Below, piece by piece: positions 46,560-57,565 of a stretch of DNA of 64,000 bases. Made by a program: the position numbers and the translations under genes. The notes below the pieces were generated by a model, which saw only the letters and a program-made list of their open reading frames with translations, ran no database searches and had not been told where the DNA came from. Source of the DNA: an uncultured Thermotogaceae bacterium (GTDB lineage Bacteria; Thermotogota; Thermotogae; MWEM01); NCBI GenBank assembly GCA_964462525.1, contig CAYWWY010000004.1, forward strand, positions 181,297-245,296, read 5' to 3'. Each line of letters opens with the position of its first letter. Position 1 is the stretch's first letter.

Positions 46560-47111
46560 ATGAATATTGCCGTGATCGGTTATTCAGGAGATGCAAAGGC
46601 GTCTCCTGTTTTTGAGTTGAGAGACCTGTGTTATGCTCTTGGAGCATGGATCGGATCAGAAAGACACCGGCTCTGGAGCGGTGGGAGAGATGGGGTGATG
46701 GAACTGGTCAGTCAAGCTGCTCAAGATCAAGGAGCGACAACAATCGGGGTTTTGCCTTATGATCGTTCTCAACCCGGAATTGACCCAAACCCATGGTTGG
46801 ATCTTCCCATATTCACAGGTCTTGATTATCAAATGCGGAGCTTGATCCTGTTACAAAATGCCGAATGTGTGATTTCTGTCGGCGGACAATGCGGAACAGC
46901 CTTGGAGATTATTGCTGCATATTCATACAGCAAACCGCTCTTTTTGATGAAAGGCACAGGAGGATGGACTGATCGAATGGCTTTGATTTTTGCGCACCAT
47001 ACCCAACCTGTCTTTTTAGATCAACGCGCTTTGGCTCCTGTCTGGATCGCAGACGGGATGGCCGATTTTCAAACCCTGTTTCATAGAGAGTTTCCAAGGA
47101 GTCGATCATGA
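46560..47111 (+). CDS. TIGR00725-family / LOG-like Rossmann-fold protein
   Basis: MNIAVIGYSGD ... SGGRDGVMELV ... TIGVLP pattern. A GAAGGAGG RBS lies 5 nt upstream. ATGA overlap with the next gene. Confidence 0.65.
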   Translation: MNIAVIGYSGDAKASPVFELRDLCYALGAWIGSERHRLWSGGRDGVMELVSQAAQDQGATTIGVLPYDRSQPGIDPNPWLDLPIFTGLDYQMRSLILLQNAECVISVGGQCGTALEIIAAYSYSKPLFLMKGTGGWTDRMALIFAHHTQPVFLDQRALAPVWIADGMADFQTLFHREFPRSRS

Positions 47112-48196
47112 AAATCTGTGTGATTGGAGCCGGAAACGGTGGTCAGGCGCTTGCTGCGTACCTTGCCCTAAAAGGGGAATCCGTTACACTATTCAACCGA
47201 AGTCGGAAACGAATCAGCCCGATTATGCGATCCCGGACCATTCGTTTGGAAGGGTCCATCTTTGATAGCGCTCAGCTCGATGGAATTACAACCAATCTCG
47301 AAGAAGCGGTGCACGGAGCCTCTCTCATCATGGTGGTGGTCCCGGCCTTTGCCCATCGAGATGTGGCGGAAAAATTGGCCCCGGTTTTGGAAGACGGGCA
47401 AGTAGTCCTACTGAATCCCGGACGCACATTCGGAGCACTGGAATTTCGAATGATTCTTGAGCAGATGAAGGTGACTAAAGAAATCATCCTTGCTGAAGCC
47501 CAAACCTTTGTGTTTGCGTCCAGGGCTTCGAACCCTGGAGTAGTGAATATTTTTCGAATCAAGAATGCTGTCCCAGTTGCGGCATTGCCCGCCAATCAGA
47601 ACAAAGCCGTTGCTGATCTTCTTGAACCCATTATGCCTGAGTTTATTGTCGAAAAAAATACCCTTCATACGAGCCTGAACAATATCGGGGCTGTATTTCA
47701 CCCTGCAGCGCTCATTTTGAACGCCGGTTGGGTGGAATCAACCGCGGGGAAGTTCGAATTTTATCTCGATGGGATTACCCGTTCGGTAGCAAAGGTGTTA
47801 GAAGAGATTGACTCGGAACGGTGCCAATTGGCAAAGGCGTTGGGGTTAGAACCGCAGACAGCCAAATCATGGCTCGACTATGCTTATGATGTGTACGGTT
47901 CTAATTTATACGAAGCCATTCATAGCAATACAGGCTATCAAGGAATCATGGCCCCCCCAAGTCTTCAAAACCGGTATATCTTGGAAGACGTTCCCATGAG
48001 CTTGGTTCCGATTGCCTCGATGGCAAAAGCTTTTGGAATCTCTACTCCCACGATTGATTCTATTGTCCAACTGTCCTCGGTTTTGATGCAAACGGATTTT
48101 GCCCGCGAGGGCAGGACAATCGAAAAACTCGGCTTAACGGGAAGGACGGCGGAAGAAATTCAAACGATTATTGAAGAAGGGATCACCGACTCGTGA
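47108..48196 (+). CDS. Opine (octopine/nopaline) dehydrogenase-family NAD(P) oxidoreductase
   Basis: N-terminal MKICVIGAGNGGQALAAYLA dinucleotide-binding motif. 362 aa. Confidence 0.65.
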   Translation: MKICVIGAGNGGQALAAYLALKGESVTLFNRSRKRISPIMRSRTIRLEGSIFDSAQLDGITTNLEEAVHGASLIMVVVPAFAHRDVAEKLAPVLEDGQVVLLNPGRTFGALEFRMILEQMKVTKEIILAEAQTFVFASRASNPGVVNIFRIKNAVPVAALPANQNKAVADLLEPIMPEFIVEKNTLHTSLNNIGAVFHPAALILNAGWVESTAGKFEFYLDGITRSVAKVLEEIDSERCQLAKALGLEPQTAKSWLDYAYDVYGSNLYEAIHSNTGYQGIMAPPSLQNRYILEDVPMSLVPIASMAKAFGISTPTIDSIVQLSSVLMQTDFAREGRTIEKLGLTGRTAEEIQTIIEEGITDS

Positions 48197-49863
48197 AGAT
48201 CATATGCGCCTCCCTTGGAGGATGCGTGCACACAGCAGGCCTCCTGCGCTTTACTCAGCTCGCTCAAGAACAAGGACATCGTTGCACCTATTTGGGTGGG
48301 GCGGTGCCTATCGACAAGTTGATCGGAAGCATCATTGAAATCGAGCCCGATATGGCGGCATTGAGTTATCGACTGAGCCCCAACGGGCTGCGTGGTATCC
48401 TTGACGAACTCTTTGTACAGCTTTCGATCCGCGAAACACCCCATATCGATTTCTGGTTTGGTGGAACGCCTGAGACGGTTGGTGTTGCTCGGACATATGA
48501 ACCATTCACTCGGTTTTTTGACGGCAGTGAAACGGAGAAAGAGGTGCTTCATGCCCTCACCGATACCGCTCCCGGAGATCATCAAGTTCACATCCCTCCC
48601 CAAACATTGGTCGAACGAATCAAGTGGAAGGCACCCTACCCACTGCTTCGCCACCATATTGGGTTGCCTACCCTGCGGCAAACCAGCCAGAGCATCCGAT
48701 CGCTCGCAAAATCGGGGGTCCTAGATATCATTTCTCTTGCGCCGGATCAAAACGCTCAGCAGTATTGGTTTCACCCCCACAAGATGGACCCAACCCAGGA
48801 TGGGGCGGGAGGTGCTCCATTTCGAGATCGTAAGGATTTTCGAACCATGTATATGGCCAGCCGTACCGGAAACTACCCTTTGCTCCGATGCTACTCCGGA
48901 ACGCAGGATATCATCCCCTTTTCTCAGATGTTGATCGAGACGATCCAGAATGCTTGGGCGGCGATCCCTTTGACCTGGTATTCCGAGATGGACCGCAGAT
49001 CCGAAAGGCCTTTGGCGCAAGCAATTTCCGAAAATCAGGAGGCCATTCGATACAATGCGGATAAGGGGTTGCCTGTAGAAATCAATGAGGCCCACCAATG
49101 GGGATTGCGGTTTGCCCATGATGCGATGGAGGTTGCTGTTTCTGCAATTGCCGTCCATAACGCGAAGGTCTTAGGGGTTAAAGAGCACATCATGCAATTC
49201 ATGCTTTGCACCCCCCCCGAAATCTCTCCCGCGATGGATCTTGCCAAAGCTCTTGCCAAGTGGGAGATGGCTATAGAGATTGCTCACACTACTAGTATCC
49301 GACCCATGCGAATTATCAAAATGATCCGAACCGGTCTTCTTTCCTTTCGTACGAATCCGTTTCGGTCGATTGGTCAGTTGACCGGTTCCATGATGATCGG
49401 TTCATTTTTGCGACCCGAAATTGTCCATGTGGTCGCCTATTGCGAGGCAATCCGAAGAGCCAGTTCTCGAGTGATCATTGAAAGCGCAACTATGGTTCAA
49501 CAAATAATGGAAGAATCAAACAAGGGCCTTCCCGATTGTACTGCTGATCAAAAAATCCGGGATCGGAAAGAACAGCTGAAAGATGAAGCAAGCCAAATCC
49601 TTGAAGCCATTCGCAATTTGGATCGAAGCAATCTGGATCCCCTATGTGATCCCGTAATCATGGAAAAAGCAATTCAGATTGGTATCCTGGACGCTCCCGG
49701 ATTAGGTACCTATGGCTGCGAAAAAAAAATCCGAACCCAAGTCGTCCATGGAAGAAATGAAGTGATCGATGATTTTGGTCAACCGATCACGGAAAGCAAT
49801 CGGTTGGCTATGGTTTTTTCCCATCAGAGGAAGAGTACGATGAAACCGACTGTCCAGCAATAG
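48193..49863 (+). CDS. Cobalamin-binding-domain protein with a ~430-aa C-terminal domain of unknown function
   Basis: The N-terminal 125 aa align to B12-binding Rossmann domains (KIICASLGGCVHTAG ... GAVP ... AALSYRLSP ... GGTP), but CxHxxG replaces DxHxxG. GTGA overlap with the upstream gene. Confidence 0.5.
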   Translation: MKIICASLGGCVHTAGLLRFTQLAQEQGHRCTYLGGAVPIDKLIGSIIEIEPDMAALSYRLSPNGLRGILDELFVQLSIRETPHIDFWFGGTPETVGVARTYEPFTRFFDGSETEKEVLHALTDTAPGDHQVHIPPQTLVERIKWKAPYPLLRHHIGLPTLRQTSQSIRSLAKSGVLDIISLAPDQNAQQYWFHPHKMDPTQDGAGGAPFRDRKDFRTMYMASRTGNYPLLRCYSGTQDIIPFSQMLIETIQNAWAAIPLTWYSEMDRRSERPLAQAISENQEAIRYNADKGLPVEINEAHQWGLRFAHDAMEVAVSAIAVHNAKVLGVKEHIMQFMLCTPPEISPAMDLAKALAKWEMAIEIAHTTSIRPMRIIKMIRTGLLSFRTNPFRSIGQLTGSMMIGSFLRPEIVHVVAYCEAIRRASSRVIIESATMVQQIMEESNKGLPDCTADQKIRDRKEQLKDEASQILEAIRNLDRSNLDPLCDPVIMEKAIQIGILDAPGLGTYGCEKKIRTQVVHGRNEVIDDFGQPITESNRLAMVFSHQRKSTMKPTVQQ

Positions 49864-50588
49864 ATAGAGAAAAAGAAGAGCTTCCGGATTTTGGCCAATT
49901 GATAGAGAAACCAAAGAGCCATCCATCCTGTTCCGATCGAAACCAAGAATCCCGCCATATTGGGTCCCGATACAGTGATTGAACCTGCTTCCAAAACAAA
50001 CCCACCCAAGATCGCGGGTATGGATAGCAAGAATGAGAACTGTAGGGCCGCTTCTCTCTTGAGCCCCAAAAGCAAAGCGCCAAAAAGAGTGATCCCGCTC
50101 CGAGAAATCCCAGGCAGGATTGCGGCCGCTTGAAAAAGACCAATCAGCACTCCGCTGCGGATGCCCACTTCAAAAAGGGGAATCCTTTCGCGCTGAAGCC
50201 GATCAGACAAAAAAAGGAGAACCCCCGTAATCCATAAGTTGGCCGCAATCACCCAGTTTACGCTTAAATACGAATCCAAAAACCCTTTAATCGCAAGACC
50301 AACGATTACCGCGGGCAGTGTGCCCGCGACTATGGCCGCGGTTAACCGAAGGGATCGAAGTTCTCGACTCCATAAGCCCTGGAAGATCGAGAATATCTCT
50401 TTGCGAAGAAAAAAAAGAACGGCAATGAGCGTGCCTACGTGGAGCAGGATGACTAAAGGCGTATCGATGTCAGCCCCAAAAAGATTCCGGTATAAAAAAA
50501 GATGCCCTGAACTCGATACAGGGAGGAACTCCGTAAACCCTTGAAGGGCTCCAGCGCCGATGGAGTGAATCCAATCAATCATGAACAA
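49824..50588 (-). CDS. uppP: Undecaprenyl-diphosphate phosphatase
   Basis: FLPVSSSGHL and PGISRSG BacA-family motifs. 254 aa polytopic membrane protein. Confidence 0.85.
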   Translation of the reverse strand: MFMIDWIHSIGAGALQGFTEFLPVSSSGHLFLYRNLFGADIDTPLVILLHVGTLIAVLFFLRKEIFSIFQGLWSRELRSLRLTAAIVAGTLPAVIVGLAIKGFLDSYLSVNWVIAANLWITGVLLFLSDRLQRERIPLFEVGIRSGVLIGLFQAAAILPGISRSGITLFGALLLGLKREAALQFSFLLSIPAILGGFVLEAGSITVSGPNMAGFLVSIGTGWMALWFLYQLAKIRKLFFFSIYCWTVGFIVLFL

Positions 50589-55702: not shown

Positions 55703-57151
55703 TTAGCGAAAAGGCAAAATAGATGATGGGCATAGACGAATGGAAAGTACCTTTTTCGTTTGCGAATCGAGGGGGTACTTTCCTGAGCGTTTGATTCCCA
55801 CACACCAAATTATATCATTTTTTCCATCAATTAGGACCATGGTTTTTTTTCTTTTGCTTCGAGGAACCCGATATTCCTGGAATAATTTCGAAAGTTTCTT
55901 TCTTCCTCCAAACCCAAGAAGACTCATTCTGTCTCCTGGAGCCCAATAACGAAGAGTTAGAGGAAAGGGAATGTCATCATAATCCATAAGAATCTCAGTG
56001 TCCTCTTTGGGAAACAAAACCGGTAGCCCGAGAAATGGATACGGATCAAAAAAAAGAAGCGGGACGTCGCCAGGTACGCTGATTCGGATTGGTTCATGGA
56101 CTTGATCAACAATCAAGGGAAGCGGAAACCCGGAAAACCTAGGTTTTTCTCGCACTTCAAGTCGGATTGAATCGTAATCCCTGTGAAAGGATGCGTCCGC
56201 ATCGATCGTGATGGAAAAGTTTCCTGGGTCTTGCAATCGCCTGATAATTTGCTGGCACTTTTCCCCTGTCATTCCTATGGCGCTTCCCCTCCAACGATAA
56301 TACCCCCGAATGATCACCTCTCGTTGTATGGATTCTTCAAGGATCCCGATCTGTTTTGGGAAAAGCGCCCTTTTTTCGTTTATATCCATTTGTTGGATTA
56401 GCGGCTCAAGCATAGTCTCCAAGGCCAGATTACCTGATGAGAAGTTCTCCAAGCTTCGAAGAAGGTTCTTTCGGACAGACTGGCCGAACGACTCTTCGAG
56501 AAAAGGAATCAACTCATTCCGAATCCGATTCCTCTGAAACCGCTGGTCTTGGTTGGAAGGATCTTCTCGAAATTCGATTTGGTTTTCCTTTGCATATCGA
56601 CGAATTTCTTCCTTCGAGAAATGCAATAGCGGCCGGGCGAACGGGGGAGAAAAAGGTTTGATCGACTGAATCCCGTTCAGACCAGTCCCTCGAAGGCAGC
56701 GCATAAGAAAGGTTTCAAGAAGGTCATCTTGATGATGGGCCGTCATGATACAGCTGCTTTTTGATTCCTTCATTGTATCTTCAAGAAAAGCCATCCGTCT
56801 TTTTCGAAAGACTGCTTCCAAGCTTTGACCGGAAAAAAGCCCCGTTTTGTGTTTGTATCCCAATTCCTCTCTGCGGGTGAAAGAAGAAATCCCCATGGAT
56901 TGACATACAGACGCTACAAACGAGGCGTCGGATGAAGATTCGTTGCGATACCCATGATCGAAATGGGCAACGGCCATTTGATGGTTCTTTTCTTTCCAAA
57001 CTGAATTGAAGGCATGTAGCATAACCATGGAATCCATGCCGCCAGATACAGCCAAAAGCCAACGACAGCTGGAAAGACCATATTCATCAACAAAAAGAGA
57101 AAGGTCCTCGAAAACCCTTTCTGTGATCGTTTTTTTTGTTCCTTTCATGAT
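55703..57151 (-). CDS. tilS: tRNA(Ile)-lysidine synthetase
   Basis: PP-loop SGGMDS motif. The start is inferred at MKGTKK. The longer track ORF (to 57214) runs into the tRNA gene and is spurious there. Confidence 0.85.
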   Translation of the reverse strand: MMKGTKKTITERVFEDLSLFVDEYGLSSCRWLLAVSGGMDSMVMLHAFNSVWKEKNHQMAVAHFDHGYRNESSSDASFVASVCQSMGISSFTRREELGYKHKTGLFSGQSLEAVFRKRRMAFLEDTMKESKSSCIMTAHHQDDLLETFLMRCLRGTGLNGIQSIKPFSPPFARPLLHFSKEEIRRYAKENQIEFREDPSNQDQRFQRNRIRNELIPFLEESFGQSVRKNLLRSLENFSSGNLALETMLEPLIQQMDINEKRALFPKQIGILEESIQREVIIRGYYRWRGSAIGMTGEKCQQIIRRLQDPGNFSITIDADASFHRDYDSIRLEVREKPRFSGFPLPLIVDQVHEPIRISVPGDVPLLFFDPYPFLGLPVLFPKEDTEILMDYDDIPFPLTLRYWAPGDRMSLLGFGGRKKLSKLFQEYRVPRSKRKKTMVLIDGKNDIIWCVGIKRSGKYPLDSQTKKVLSIRLCPSSILPFR

Positions 57152-57175
57152 ACCCCTTTTTGCCGTATAAAGGAA

Positions 57176-57565
<390 letters not shown>

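Follow-up and report, generated by a model that had tools for sequence, protein, structure and literature searches.

The window analysed here is a stretch of 64,000 nucleotides from an uncultured Thermotogaceae bacterium (GenBank assembly GCA_964462525.1, contig CAYWWY010000004.1, positions 181,297 to 245,296 of the forward strand). Positions 46560 to 49863 of the window carry three closely packed genes that encode, in order, a Rossmann protein of the SLOG type, an opine dehydrogenase (ODH) and a protein with a cobalamin (B12)-binding domain, here called the B12 protein (Table 1). An earlier note on this DNA had read the three as a coupled triad joined by 4-nt overlaps. The overlaps can be read directly in the sequence (ATGA at 47108-47111 and GTGA at 48193-48196), as can a GGAGG 5′ of the ATG of the SLOG gene at 46560. 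The domain assignments of the note hold as well: the TIGR00725, Octopine_DH and B12-binding profiles are all matched above cutoff or with significance. Overlaps, however, are frequent in the window, being found in 17 of the 46 co-directional pairs of open reading frames (ORFs), five times by exactly 4 nt, and thus reflect operon packing rather than a special functional bond. Comparison with other genomes leads to a smaller unit. ODH and the B12 protein form an almost obligate gene pair, and the functional unit is this two-gene module, to which the SLOG gene is a lineage-specific neighbour.

Table 1. Genes and protein features at the locus (positions in the window; aa, amino acids of the protein concerned).
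Feature	Position	Strand	Basis
SLOG cluster-4/TIGR00725 protein, 183 aa from ATG	46560..47111	+	PF18306, TIGR00725; alternative GTG start 46545
Opine dehydrogenase (ODH), predicted acidic-amino-acid mODH subclass, 362 aa	47108..48196	+	PF02317, 1BG6 match
Putative single-chain B12-dependent mutase-like protein, 556 aa, GTG start	48193..49863	+	Homologues, AlphaFold2 (AF2), Foldseek
N-terminal cobalamin-binding Rossmann domain, aa 1-125, without helical cap	48193..48567	+	PF02310, profile search, alternating beta/alpha to residue 123
C11-V-H13-T-A-G16, variant of the DxHxxG lower-ligand motif	48223..48240	+	Alignment
Predicted GlmE-like (beta/alpha)8 TIM barrel, about aa 140-445	48610..49527	+	AF2 strands, PF06368 in relatives, hhalign
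Predicted C-terminal helical and beta-hairpin region, aa 446-556	49528..49863	+	AF2, hhalign

Relatives of the B12 protein occur in 489 species-representative genomes, and the best 80 of these were fetched with 10-kb flanks (the genome loci). Another 80 loci came from a scan seeded with an ODH alignment (the metagenome loci), which makes 161 with the window. In about 72 of the 80 genome loci, the gene directly 5′ of the B12 gene is an ODH homologue; those without an adjacent ODH are mostly truncated contigs, plus four Youngiibacter/Clostridiaceae loci. The linkage also holds in the reciprocal direction: among the 37 metagenome loci in which the ODH gene is flanked by at least 1.7 kb on either side, a B12-family gene is adjacent in 34 (downstream in 25 and upstream in 9). 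The hosts of the pair belong to eight phyla, namely Thermotogota, Bacillota (Clostridia, Negativicutes), Caldisericota, Dictyoglomota, Bacteroidota (Bacteroidales), Ignavibacteriota, WOR-3 and, through a Thermoplasmata archaeon, one outside bacteria. In the protein collection, the homologues of the B12 protein number more than 2000, and a 50%-clustered library has 190 representatives at E <1e-30. A SLOG homologue, in contrast, was found by tblastn beside the pair in only one of the 80 genome loci (L001) besides the window, and in none of the 80 metagenome loci. Thus, one link of the proposed triad stands and the other does not: the SLOG gene accompanies the pair in only 2 of 161 loci and occurs independently of it in relatives, whereas ODH and the B12 gene clearly do not part in this way. 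Other conserved neighbours that were considered as members of the module (such as HrcA-GrpE-DnaJ, NAD synthase, glycerate kinase, RNase HII and GlnA) were set aside as housekeeping and lineage-specific genes.

The locus L001, from a metagenome-assembled genome of an uncultured Thermotogaceae, is an 87%-identical relative and allowed codons to be compared. Synonymous and non-synonymous changes number 39 and 28 in the SLOG gene, 106 and 6 in the ODH gene, and 136 and 81 in the B12 gene; all three are under purifying selection. ODH (47108-48196) is much more constrained than its neighbours, with about 98-99% amino acid identity at 89% nucleotide identity, against about 85% amino acid identity for the flanking SLOG and B12 proteins. 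Recombination or a chimera was considered as the source of the high ODH identity and was rejected: DNA identity is uniform (about 88-90%) across the region. The ODH identity is therefore so high because purifying selection on it is strong.

The surroundings of the pair vary. The Proteiniclasticum loci related to the four Youngiibacter/Clostridiaceae loci (L037, L038, L044 and L046) keep the adjacent ODH that those four lack, and both groups have an MGS-like gene 5′ of the B12 gene and a conserved 581-aa protein 3′ of it (cluster c7, with a weak PEPCK_ATP match). Among the metagenome loci, no adjacent B12 gene was detectable in L128, L160 and L149, which have an AsnB-like gene with ODH, nor in L124, L152 and L156, which have ODH with an ATP-grasp gene. 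On the short contig L139 (277-2791) a GlmL/MutL-like gene lies directly 3′ of ODH, with no B12-family match between them. In Thermosipho (L004, L007, L009; 6679-12983) the order is glycerate kinase (DUF4147 and MOFRL), D-2-hydroxyacid dehydrogenase, ODH, B12 mutase, Ddl-like ligase, UPF0047/YjbQ and a sigma-54 activator; the D-2-hydroxyacid dehydrogenase could be the source of a 2-oxo acid.

The SLOG protein matches PF18306 (LDcluster4) at 1.5e-32 (112.7 bits vs. a cutoff of 26.3) and TIGR00725 with 118.2 bits (cutoff 106.9). Its closest solved relative is TM1055 of Thermotoga maritima (PDB 1RCU, 3.6e-45), and it also matches the molybdenum-cofactor (Moco) carrier protein of Chlamydomonas at 7e-10. 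It was tried as a LOG phosphoribohydrolase and rejected, the scores falling well below the cutoffs (NF058542, 24.4 vs. 300; TIGR00730, 21.4 vs. 96; PF03641, 17.6 vs. 27); its VGGQCGTALE has one residue more than the LOG motif PGGxGTxxE. In the T. maritima clade, the B12 enzymes reported are MetH and ribonucleotide reductase (RNR) only (PMC3509894), and thus the SLOG family occurs independently of the pair. A LOG-like protein acting on a nucleotide-derived signal, the other possibility that the note had raised, fares poorly on distribution, since the gene is absent beside the pair in the 159 loci other than the window and L001.

An AlphaFold2 model of the B12 protein was built on an 18-sequence alignment (mean pLDDT 85.7, pTM 0.78). 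In the model a Rossmann domain, which runs to residue 125, is followed by a poorly ordered linker and a barrel. The N-terminal cobalamin-binding domain of about 125 aa was thus correctly recognized from the letters: PF02310 is matched at residues 2-103 (35.7 bits vs. a cutoff of 32.1), with nothing else found by Pfam or NCBIfam, and a profile search with the domain matches the B12 domains of OraE, MetH, GlmS and KamE. The remaining ~430 aa had been left as an unknown fold, with structure prediction proposed as the check. Prediction and Foldseek comparison point instead to a TIM barrel of the GlmE type. The best Foldseek match in the PDB is the E subunit of glutamate mutase (1cb7_B; E 2e-14, TM 0.59/0.67 over 450 columns), and lysine 5,6-aminomutase, ornithine 4,5-aminomutase, methylmalonyl-CoA mutase and IcmF rank next. 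Of the 18 family members, 13 match PF06368 (Met_asp_mut_E), the best at 8.7e-7, but the window protein gives no match at E 0.1; its C-terminal region aligns with the corresponding part of GlmE (GILDAPGL vs. GVLDVPFAP). Sequence-only searches of the PDB with the C-terminal domain (phmmer and profile) returned B12 domains only. As modelled, the protein joins a GlmS-like B12 domain and a barrel like that of GlmE in a single chain. No solved structure or NCBIfam model claims the family, and its source names, such as "methionine synthase" and "methylmalonyl-CoA mutase cobalamin-binding subunit," are generic or wrong.

The note had singled out CxHxxG in place of the canonical DxHxxG. The motif is there (GGC11-V-H13-TAG16) but is no peculiarity of this protein, Cys being the family majority: of 78 members, 55 begin the motif with Cys, 19 with Asp and 1 with Glu. 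H13, G16 and F89-G90-G91-T92 are invariant in the family alignment. A sister subfamily of about 620 aa (L136, 4701-8014; P0164, P0168 and related proteins) keeps the canonical motif as DAHTLG, and some of its members are fused to MutL (P0145, P0149).

In the barrel, invariant residues gather at the C-terminal ends of the eight strands: R153-H154-H155, D185-Q186-N187-Q189, R232/Y234/G236/T237, N253/W255, E296/H301-Q302-W303/R306, Q335/M337, R379 and H412/E418/R422. Many of them are basic (R153, H154, H155, R232, H301, R306, R379, H412 and R422). GlmE holds its substrate with three arginines, Glu171 and Tyr181, and its Glu330 contacts the adenosyl ribose. The family was aligned by hhalign with a profile of GlmE that started from the E. 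coli O157 gene. In this low-confidence alignment the three arginines fall on R153 (a plausible counterpart), Q189 (for the Arg of YTR) and Y234 (for that of QIRHG), Glu171 on A256 and Tyr181 on L260, while the ribose-binding Glu falls on the invariant E418 of the motif AYCEA. As most of the glutamate-binding residues are not conserved in this alignment, the substrate is not simply glutamate; the B12 protein is probably a GlmE-like mutase of its own kind, acting on another substrate that is probably polyanionic.

The cofactor form can be judged from several sides. Neither the cap domain PF02607 nor methyltransferase barrels (PF02574, PF00809) are present in the window protein or the 18 members, and the B12 protein has no radical-SAM motif. 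MutL/GlmL is fused to distant relatives (P0145, P0148 and P0149), a GlmL homologue is the next gene 3′ of the B12 gene in two loci (L123 and L127), and in L112 the gene that follows encodes a PduO-type cob(I)alamin adenosyltransferase; neither GlmL/MutL nor the adenosyltransferase occurs in the window or in most loci. Together with E418, these features argue for an adenosylcobalamin (AdoCbl) radical enzyme rather than a methyl carrier, and the B12 protein most likely is a His-on radical mutase using AdoCbl. An invariant Lys is missing from residues 1-125 of the family alignment, which argues against an aminomutase dependent on pyridoxal phosphate (PLP). Neither methylaspartase nor GlmE proper was found near the pair in the loci examined.

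The other member of the pair is better anchored in biochemistry. The window ODH matches PF02317 (Octopine_DH) at 1.3e-47, has the dinucleotide-fold motif IGAGNGG (GxGxxG/A), and aligns at 3e-82 over its full length (residues 4-356) with N-(1-D-carboxyethyl)-L-norvaline dehydrogenase of Arthrobacter (ArODH, also CENDH; PDB 1BG6). The catalytic H202, R292 and D297 (ArODH numbering) are kept in the window, and in the B12-linked ODHs generally (70, 70 and 69 of 70, respectively). In 2024, six mODH enzymes from a hot-spring metagenome were characterized (PMC10787698). In contrast to ArODH, their preferred substrates are acidic L-amino acids (Asp, Glu, cysteate, homocysteate, 2-aminopimelate) with pyruvate, and they mostly take NADPH; kcat is modest (~1 s-1) and the KM for Asp millimolar (PMC10787698). 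These values suggest that Asp is not the native substrate. Mutagenesis showed that Arg at ArODH position 111 and Gly at 198 set the acidic specificity and that Arg at 35 goes with NADPH use (PMC10787698). The window ODH has R, G and R at positions 111, 198 and 35, as do 70, 69 and 69, respectively, of the 70 B12-linked ODHs. One of the characterized enzymes, mODH-48, shares 54% identity with the window ODH and 81% with the ODH beside the B12 gene in a Kosmotogaceae genome (L057). By these residues the window ODH is assigned to the mODH subclass that condenses acidic L-amino acids with pyruvate, and it probably accepts NADPH; its condensation of an L-amino acid with pyruvate is predicted from mODH-48, for which the activity was measured. 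The mODH study treats the enzymes as stand-alone biocatalysts, makes no reference to cobalamin, to neighbouring genes or to a role in the cell, and does not include 3-methylaspartate in its substrate panel (PMC10787698).

Control of the pair has left a trace in the DNA of one group of hosts. Many loci have a long leader 5′ of ODH, and in nine Bacillota loci Rfam scans found in it, on the same strand, the cyclic di-AMP (c-di-AMP) riboswitch RF00379 (79-114 bits vs. a gathering score of 38). A covariance model made from these nine added a tenth genome locus and four metagenome loci, 14 in total. In Thermoanaerobacter (L065) the layout is complete, ODH being preceded by a near-consensus promoter, the aptamer and a terminator hairpin with a T-run. 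In L102, one of the four metagenome loci, the riboswitch is followed by ODH, the B12 gene and a Ddl-like ligase; the riboswitch-controlled operons of Bacillota usually hold just ODH and the B12 gene. The L136 locus, another of these four, on a 67% GC contig with ODH and the riboswitch upstream, is the high-GC case and encodes the mutase of the sister subfamily. The c-di-AMP class alone was found upstream of the pair; cobalamin and amino-acid riboswitches and T-boxes gave no match at gathering score. Binding of c-di-AMP makes this riboswitch terminate transcription, and its known places are genes for K+ importers, osmolyte and amino-acid transporters and wall-remodelling enzymes (PMC10636490; PMC3766115). 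The nucleotide reports K+ availability, is tied to glutamate, a K+ counter-ion, and governs K+, glutamate and osmotic homeostasis (PMC10636490; PMC3766115). Since the riboswitch terminates when c-di-AMP is bound, the ODH-mutase operon should be expressed when c-di-AMP is low.

Apart from the two genes themselves, only ATP-dependent enzymes that form amides recur in the neighbourhood. Of the 78 genome loci with a called B12 gene, 44 have an ATP-grasp or AsnB-like gene within 3 kb of it. The partner is a diverged D-Ala-D-Ala-ligase paralogue, scoring below the Ddl model cutoffs, in 31 loci, an AsnB-like amidotransferase (TIGR03104 at 5.6e-42, below cutoff) in 11, and a second type of ATP-grasp enzyme in 3; in P0136, the mutase is naturally fused to an ATP-grasp domain of the glutathione-synthetase/RimK type. 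Such ligases have a precedent in the NAGGN osmolyte pathway, which consists of the AsnO amidotransferase and the Ngg ATP-grasp ligase. In Sporomusa aerivorans (L010) and two Hathewaya species (L015, L021), the pair is placed between a Wzx flippase gene and genes for an ATP-grasp enzyme, DUF7033, full-length AsnB and glycosyltransferases, with a UDP-sugar dehydrogenase, a Gfo/Idh/MocA oxidoreductase, a DegT aminotransferase and a hexapeptide acetyltransferase upstream. A gene of the UDP-sugar-dehydrogenase family lies directly 5′ of ODH in three Thermotogaceae loci (L027, L029 and L059).

These elements can be assembled into a pathway. ODH would condense an acidic L-amino acid of the Asp/Glu type with pyruvate, using NAD(P)H, to an N-(1-carboxyethyl) amino acid, and the mutase would isomerize either the amino-acid substrate or the opine itself by AdoCbl radical chemistry. 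The mutase may act before ODH, for example through a 3-methylaspartate-like intermediate, or after it on the tricarboxylate opine; in the second order, a tricarboxylate would suit the strongly basic barrel. In either order, the joint product would be a rearranged, polyanionic polycarboxylate opine, which in many lineages an ATP-grasp or AsnB-like ligase would then amidate. In Bacillota, the operon would be on at low c-di-AMP, a state expected under K+ shortage or under osmotic or envelope stress. Induction at low c-di-AMP and the NAGGN precedent suggest that the product serves as a compatible solute or K+ counter-ion, and the polysaccharide contexts that in some lineages it is a surface building block attached to uronic-acid glycans. 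A B12-dependent rearrangement coupled to reductive condensation, giving an opine-like product, had been one of the guesses of the note, and we regard it as the best reading given the linkage, the GlmE-like mutase and the catalytic and specificity residues of ODH; the cofactor form, the order of the steps, the substrate, the product and its role we infer. The chances that the two enzymes jointly make a rearranged polyanionic opine are, in our judgement, about even. Within that model, roughly one third goes to a free-osmolyte role and one quarter to envelope decoration, roles that are compatible across lineages. The full proposal is that the pair is an unrecognized pathway of some 490 species in eight phyla, mostly anaerobes and thermophiles, in which a new class of single-chain AdoCbl mutase, with a Cys-x-His motif and a non-glutamate active site, rearranges an opine or acidic amino acid, giving a polyanionic solute or K+ counter-ion that is made when c-di-AMP is low. 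So stated, it is possible, and we put it forward tentatively.

Several observations weigh against the opine pathway as modelled here. The riboswitch linkage is confined to Bacillota-type loci and one high-GC locus, and neither Rfam nor the covariance model finds a riboswitch in the window, where the pair is the end of a long housekeeping operon and where no ligase homologue occurs anywhere in the 64 kb. In the four Youngiibacter/Clostridiaceae loci no ODH lies beside the B12 gene. Two to three loci have ODH and a ligase without a B12 gene, which suggests that the mutase step can be dispensable or encoded elsewhere. The hhalign probability against GlmE is just 7-13%, the alignment at the level of residues is weak, and in it Glu171, Tyr181 and two of the three arginines that hold the substrate of GlmE have no conserved counterpart. 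Finally, the placing of the pair inside a polysaccharide cluster in Sporomusa and Hathewaya favours glycan decoration there. The last point leads to the view that the main role of the pair is in the envelope, with an acidic amino acid or opine amide-linked by the ligases to uronic-acid sugars or peptidoglycan precursors. N-(1-carboxyethyl) amino acids are substituents of some O-antigens, the UDP-sugar-dehydrogenase-family gene before ODH in three Thermotogaceae loci fits, and the most frequent third partner is a paralogue of a D-Ala-D-Ala ligase. Genes of cell-wall remodelling are also under c-di-AMP riboswitches (PMC3766115; PMC9960051). Yet most loci have the pair alone or among housekeeping genes with no glycan genes nearby, the riboswitch operons of Bacillota are usually the two genes alone, and the window pair has neither a ligase nor a glycosyltransferase beside it, so that as a general account an envelope role appears somewhat unlikely.

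Two other readings concern the direction and the substrate of the chemistry. The mutase might be a true glutamate mutase variant, converting L-glutamate to 3-methylaspartate that ODH would trap with pyruvate, which would fix the order of steps within the main model. GlmE is the best structural match, GlmL/MutL occurs as fusions and neighbours, and the mODHs favour aspartate-shaped substrates with modest kcat and high KM, 3-methylaspartate lying outside the tested panel. The replacements at Q189, Y234, A256 and L260, as far as a low-confidence alignment can place them, speak against it, and we think it unlikely. The pair could instead be catabolic, with ODH running oxidatively on an environmental opine or acidic amino acid and the mutase feeding fermentation: ODHs can work in both directions, anaerobes use GlmES, KamDE and OraSE in fermentation, and the hosts of the pair are fermentative anaerobes. 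But no methylaspartase, transporter or downstream fermentation gene is conserved nearby, the ATP-dependent ligases point to biosynthesis, and induction at low c-di-AMP suits accumulation over degradation; we consider catabolism quite improbable. Still less room is left for the triad as a real unit, in which the SLOG protein would be a nucleotide- or cofactor-binding partner, such as a sensor or carrier, in this lineage. Translational coupling by the ATGA overlap, the same three-gene arrangement in L001, the molybdenum-cofactor carrier among the SLOG relatives and the lack in the window of the riboswitch used by other lineages would fit it. The presence of the SLOG gene in so few loci, its weaker constraint, the commonness of 4-nt overlaps in the window and the SLOG family of T. 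maritima, which is without the pair, make it very improbable. That the B12 protein is a corrinoid methyltransferase or a "methionine synthase," finally, is barely credible. Database names and weak sequence matches of the B12 domain to MetH and corrinoid proteins suggest it, but those matches are limited to the generic domain, the PF02607 cap and homocysteine- or pterin-binding domains are absent, the barrel resembles those of mutases and not of MetH, the GlmL and adenosyltransferase links speak for a mutase, and no NCBIfam model claims the family.

Some features of the window lie beside the subject. The 3′ end of the B12 gene overlaps a convergent undecaprenyl-diphosphatase-like gene (longest ORF 49824-50588, minus strand) by 40 nt (49824-49863), which leaves no space for a terminator between them. 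Further on, a tRNA gene (57179-57251, minus strand) overlaps the first 36 nt of the longest TilS-like ORF (55703-57214, minus strand). The N-terminus of that ORF (MSRPWVRIPPLAP...) resembles translated tRNA, and the real start is therefore probably at the downstream MKGTKK.

The components of the module are of known kinds: a B12 mutase, an opine dehydrogenase and, in the window, a SLOG protein. What appear to be undescribed are the single-chain, mostly Cys-x-His, mutase family, its near-obligate pairing with ODH, and its membership of the c-di-AMP regulon. No literature linking opine dehydrogenase to a B12 protein or to the c-di-AMP riboswitch was found among open-access full texts, a set that excludes the primary riboswitch papers. 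The known AdoCbl isomerase reactions are few, and new substrate classes have drawn mechanistic and biotechnological interest; here a large and well-conserved family of B12 mutases has gone under misleading database names. The pairing gives the acid-specific ODHs a genomic partner and thus a route to their native substrate, and it adds a biosynthetic operon to a riboswitch regulon that so far has been mainly one of transporters and wall hydrolases. If the solute proposal is correct, osmolyte biosynthesis would gain its first B12-dependent step, and bacterial opine dehydrogenases of acidic substrates their first physiological role. The proposal is directly testable with two soluble thermophile enzymes and a short list of candidate substrates.

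Among known systems, the closest to the B12 protein is glutamate mutase, GlmS/GlmE, with its companion GlmL/MutL (PDB 1CB7; E. coli O157 ECs_0762-0764). Both have a B12 Rossmann domain with a His ligand and a TIM barrel of the same fold; the best Foldseek match, the PF06368 matches, the ribose-binding Glu and the GlmL homologues fused or adjacent in relatives add to the likeness. The differences are as clear. The B12 family is one polypeptide with the B12 domain at its N-terminus, the Asp of DxHxxG is usually Cys, most of the "arginine claw" together with Glu171 and Tyr181 is not conserved, and the gene is never beside methylaspartase and nearly always beside ODH. The PLP- and AdoCbl-dependent aminomutases (lysine 5,6- and ornithine 4,5-) are matched structurally in the second tier, and the B12 domain is closest in sequence to that of OraE; the B12 family, however, has no invariant PLP lysine in this domain and is structurally less similar to them than to GlmE. 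ODH shares family, fold, the catalytic His/Arg/Asp and R111 with G198 with ArODH/CENDH and the hot-spring mODHs, but published work treats the mODHs as stand-alone enzymes, whereas the ODHs here partner a B12 mutase gene.

The SLOG protein is a clear member of TIGR00725/SLOG cluster 4, as are TM1055 (PDB 1RCU) and the Chlamydomonas Moco carrier, although its gene is tied to the ODH-B12 pair only in the lineage of the window. In control, the Bacillota operons resemble the ydaO/kimA regulon of c-di-AMP: the RNA family (RF00379), the terminator-type platform and the place directly 5′ of the operon are the same, but most genes known in that regulon encode K+ and osmolyte transporters and cell-wall hydrolases. 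In the NAGGN pathway, too, an AsnB-like amidotransferase and an ATP-grasp ligase build an osmolyte derived from amino acids. That pathway, however, works without an opine dehydrogenase and without a B12 enzyme, whereas for the ODH-B12 pair it is the ligases that are optional.

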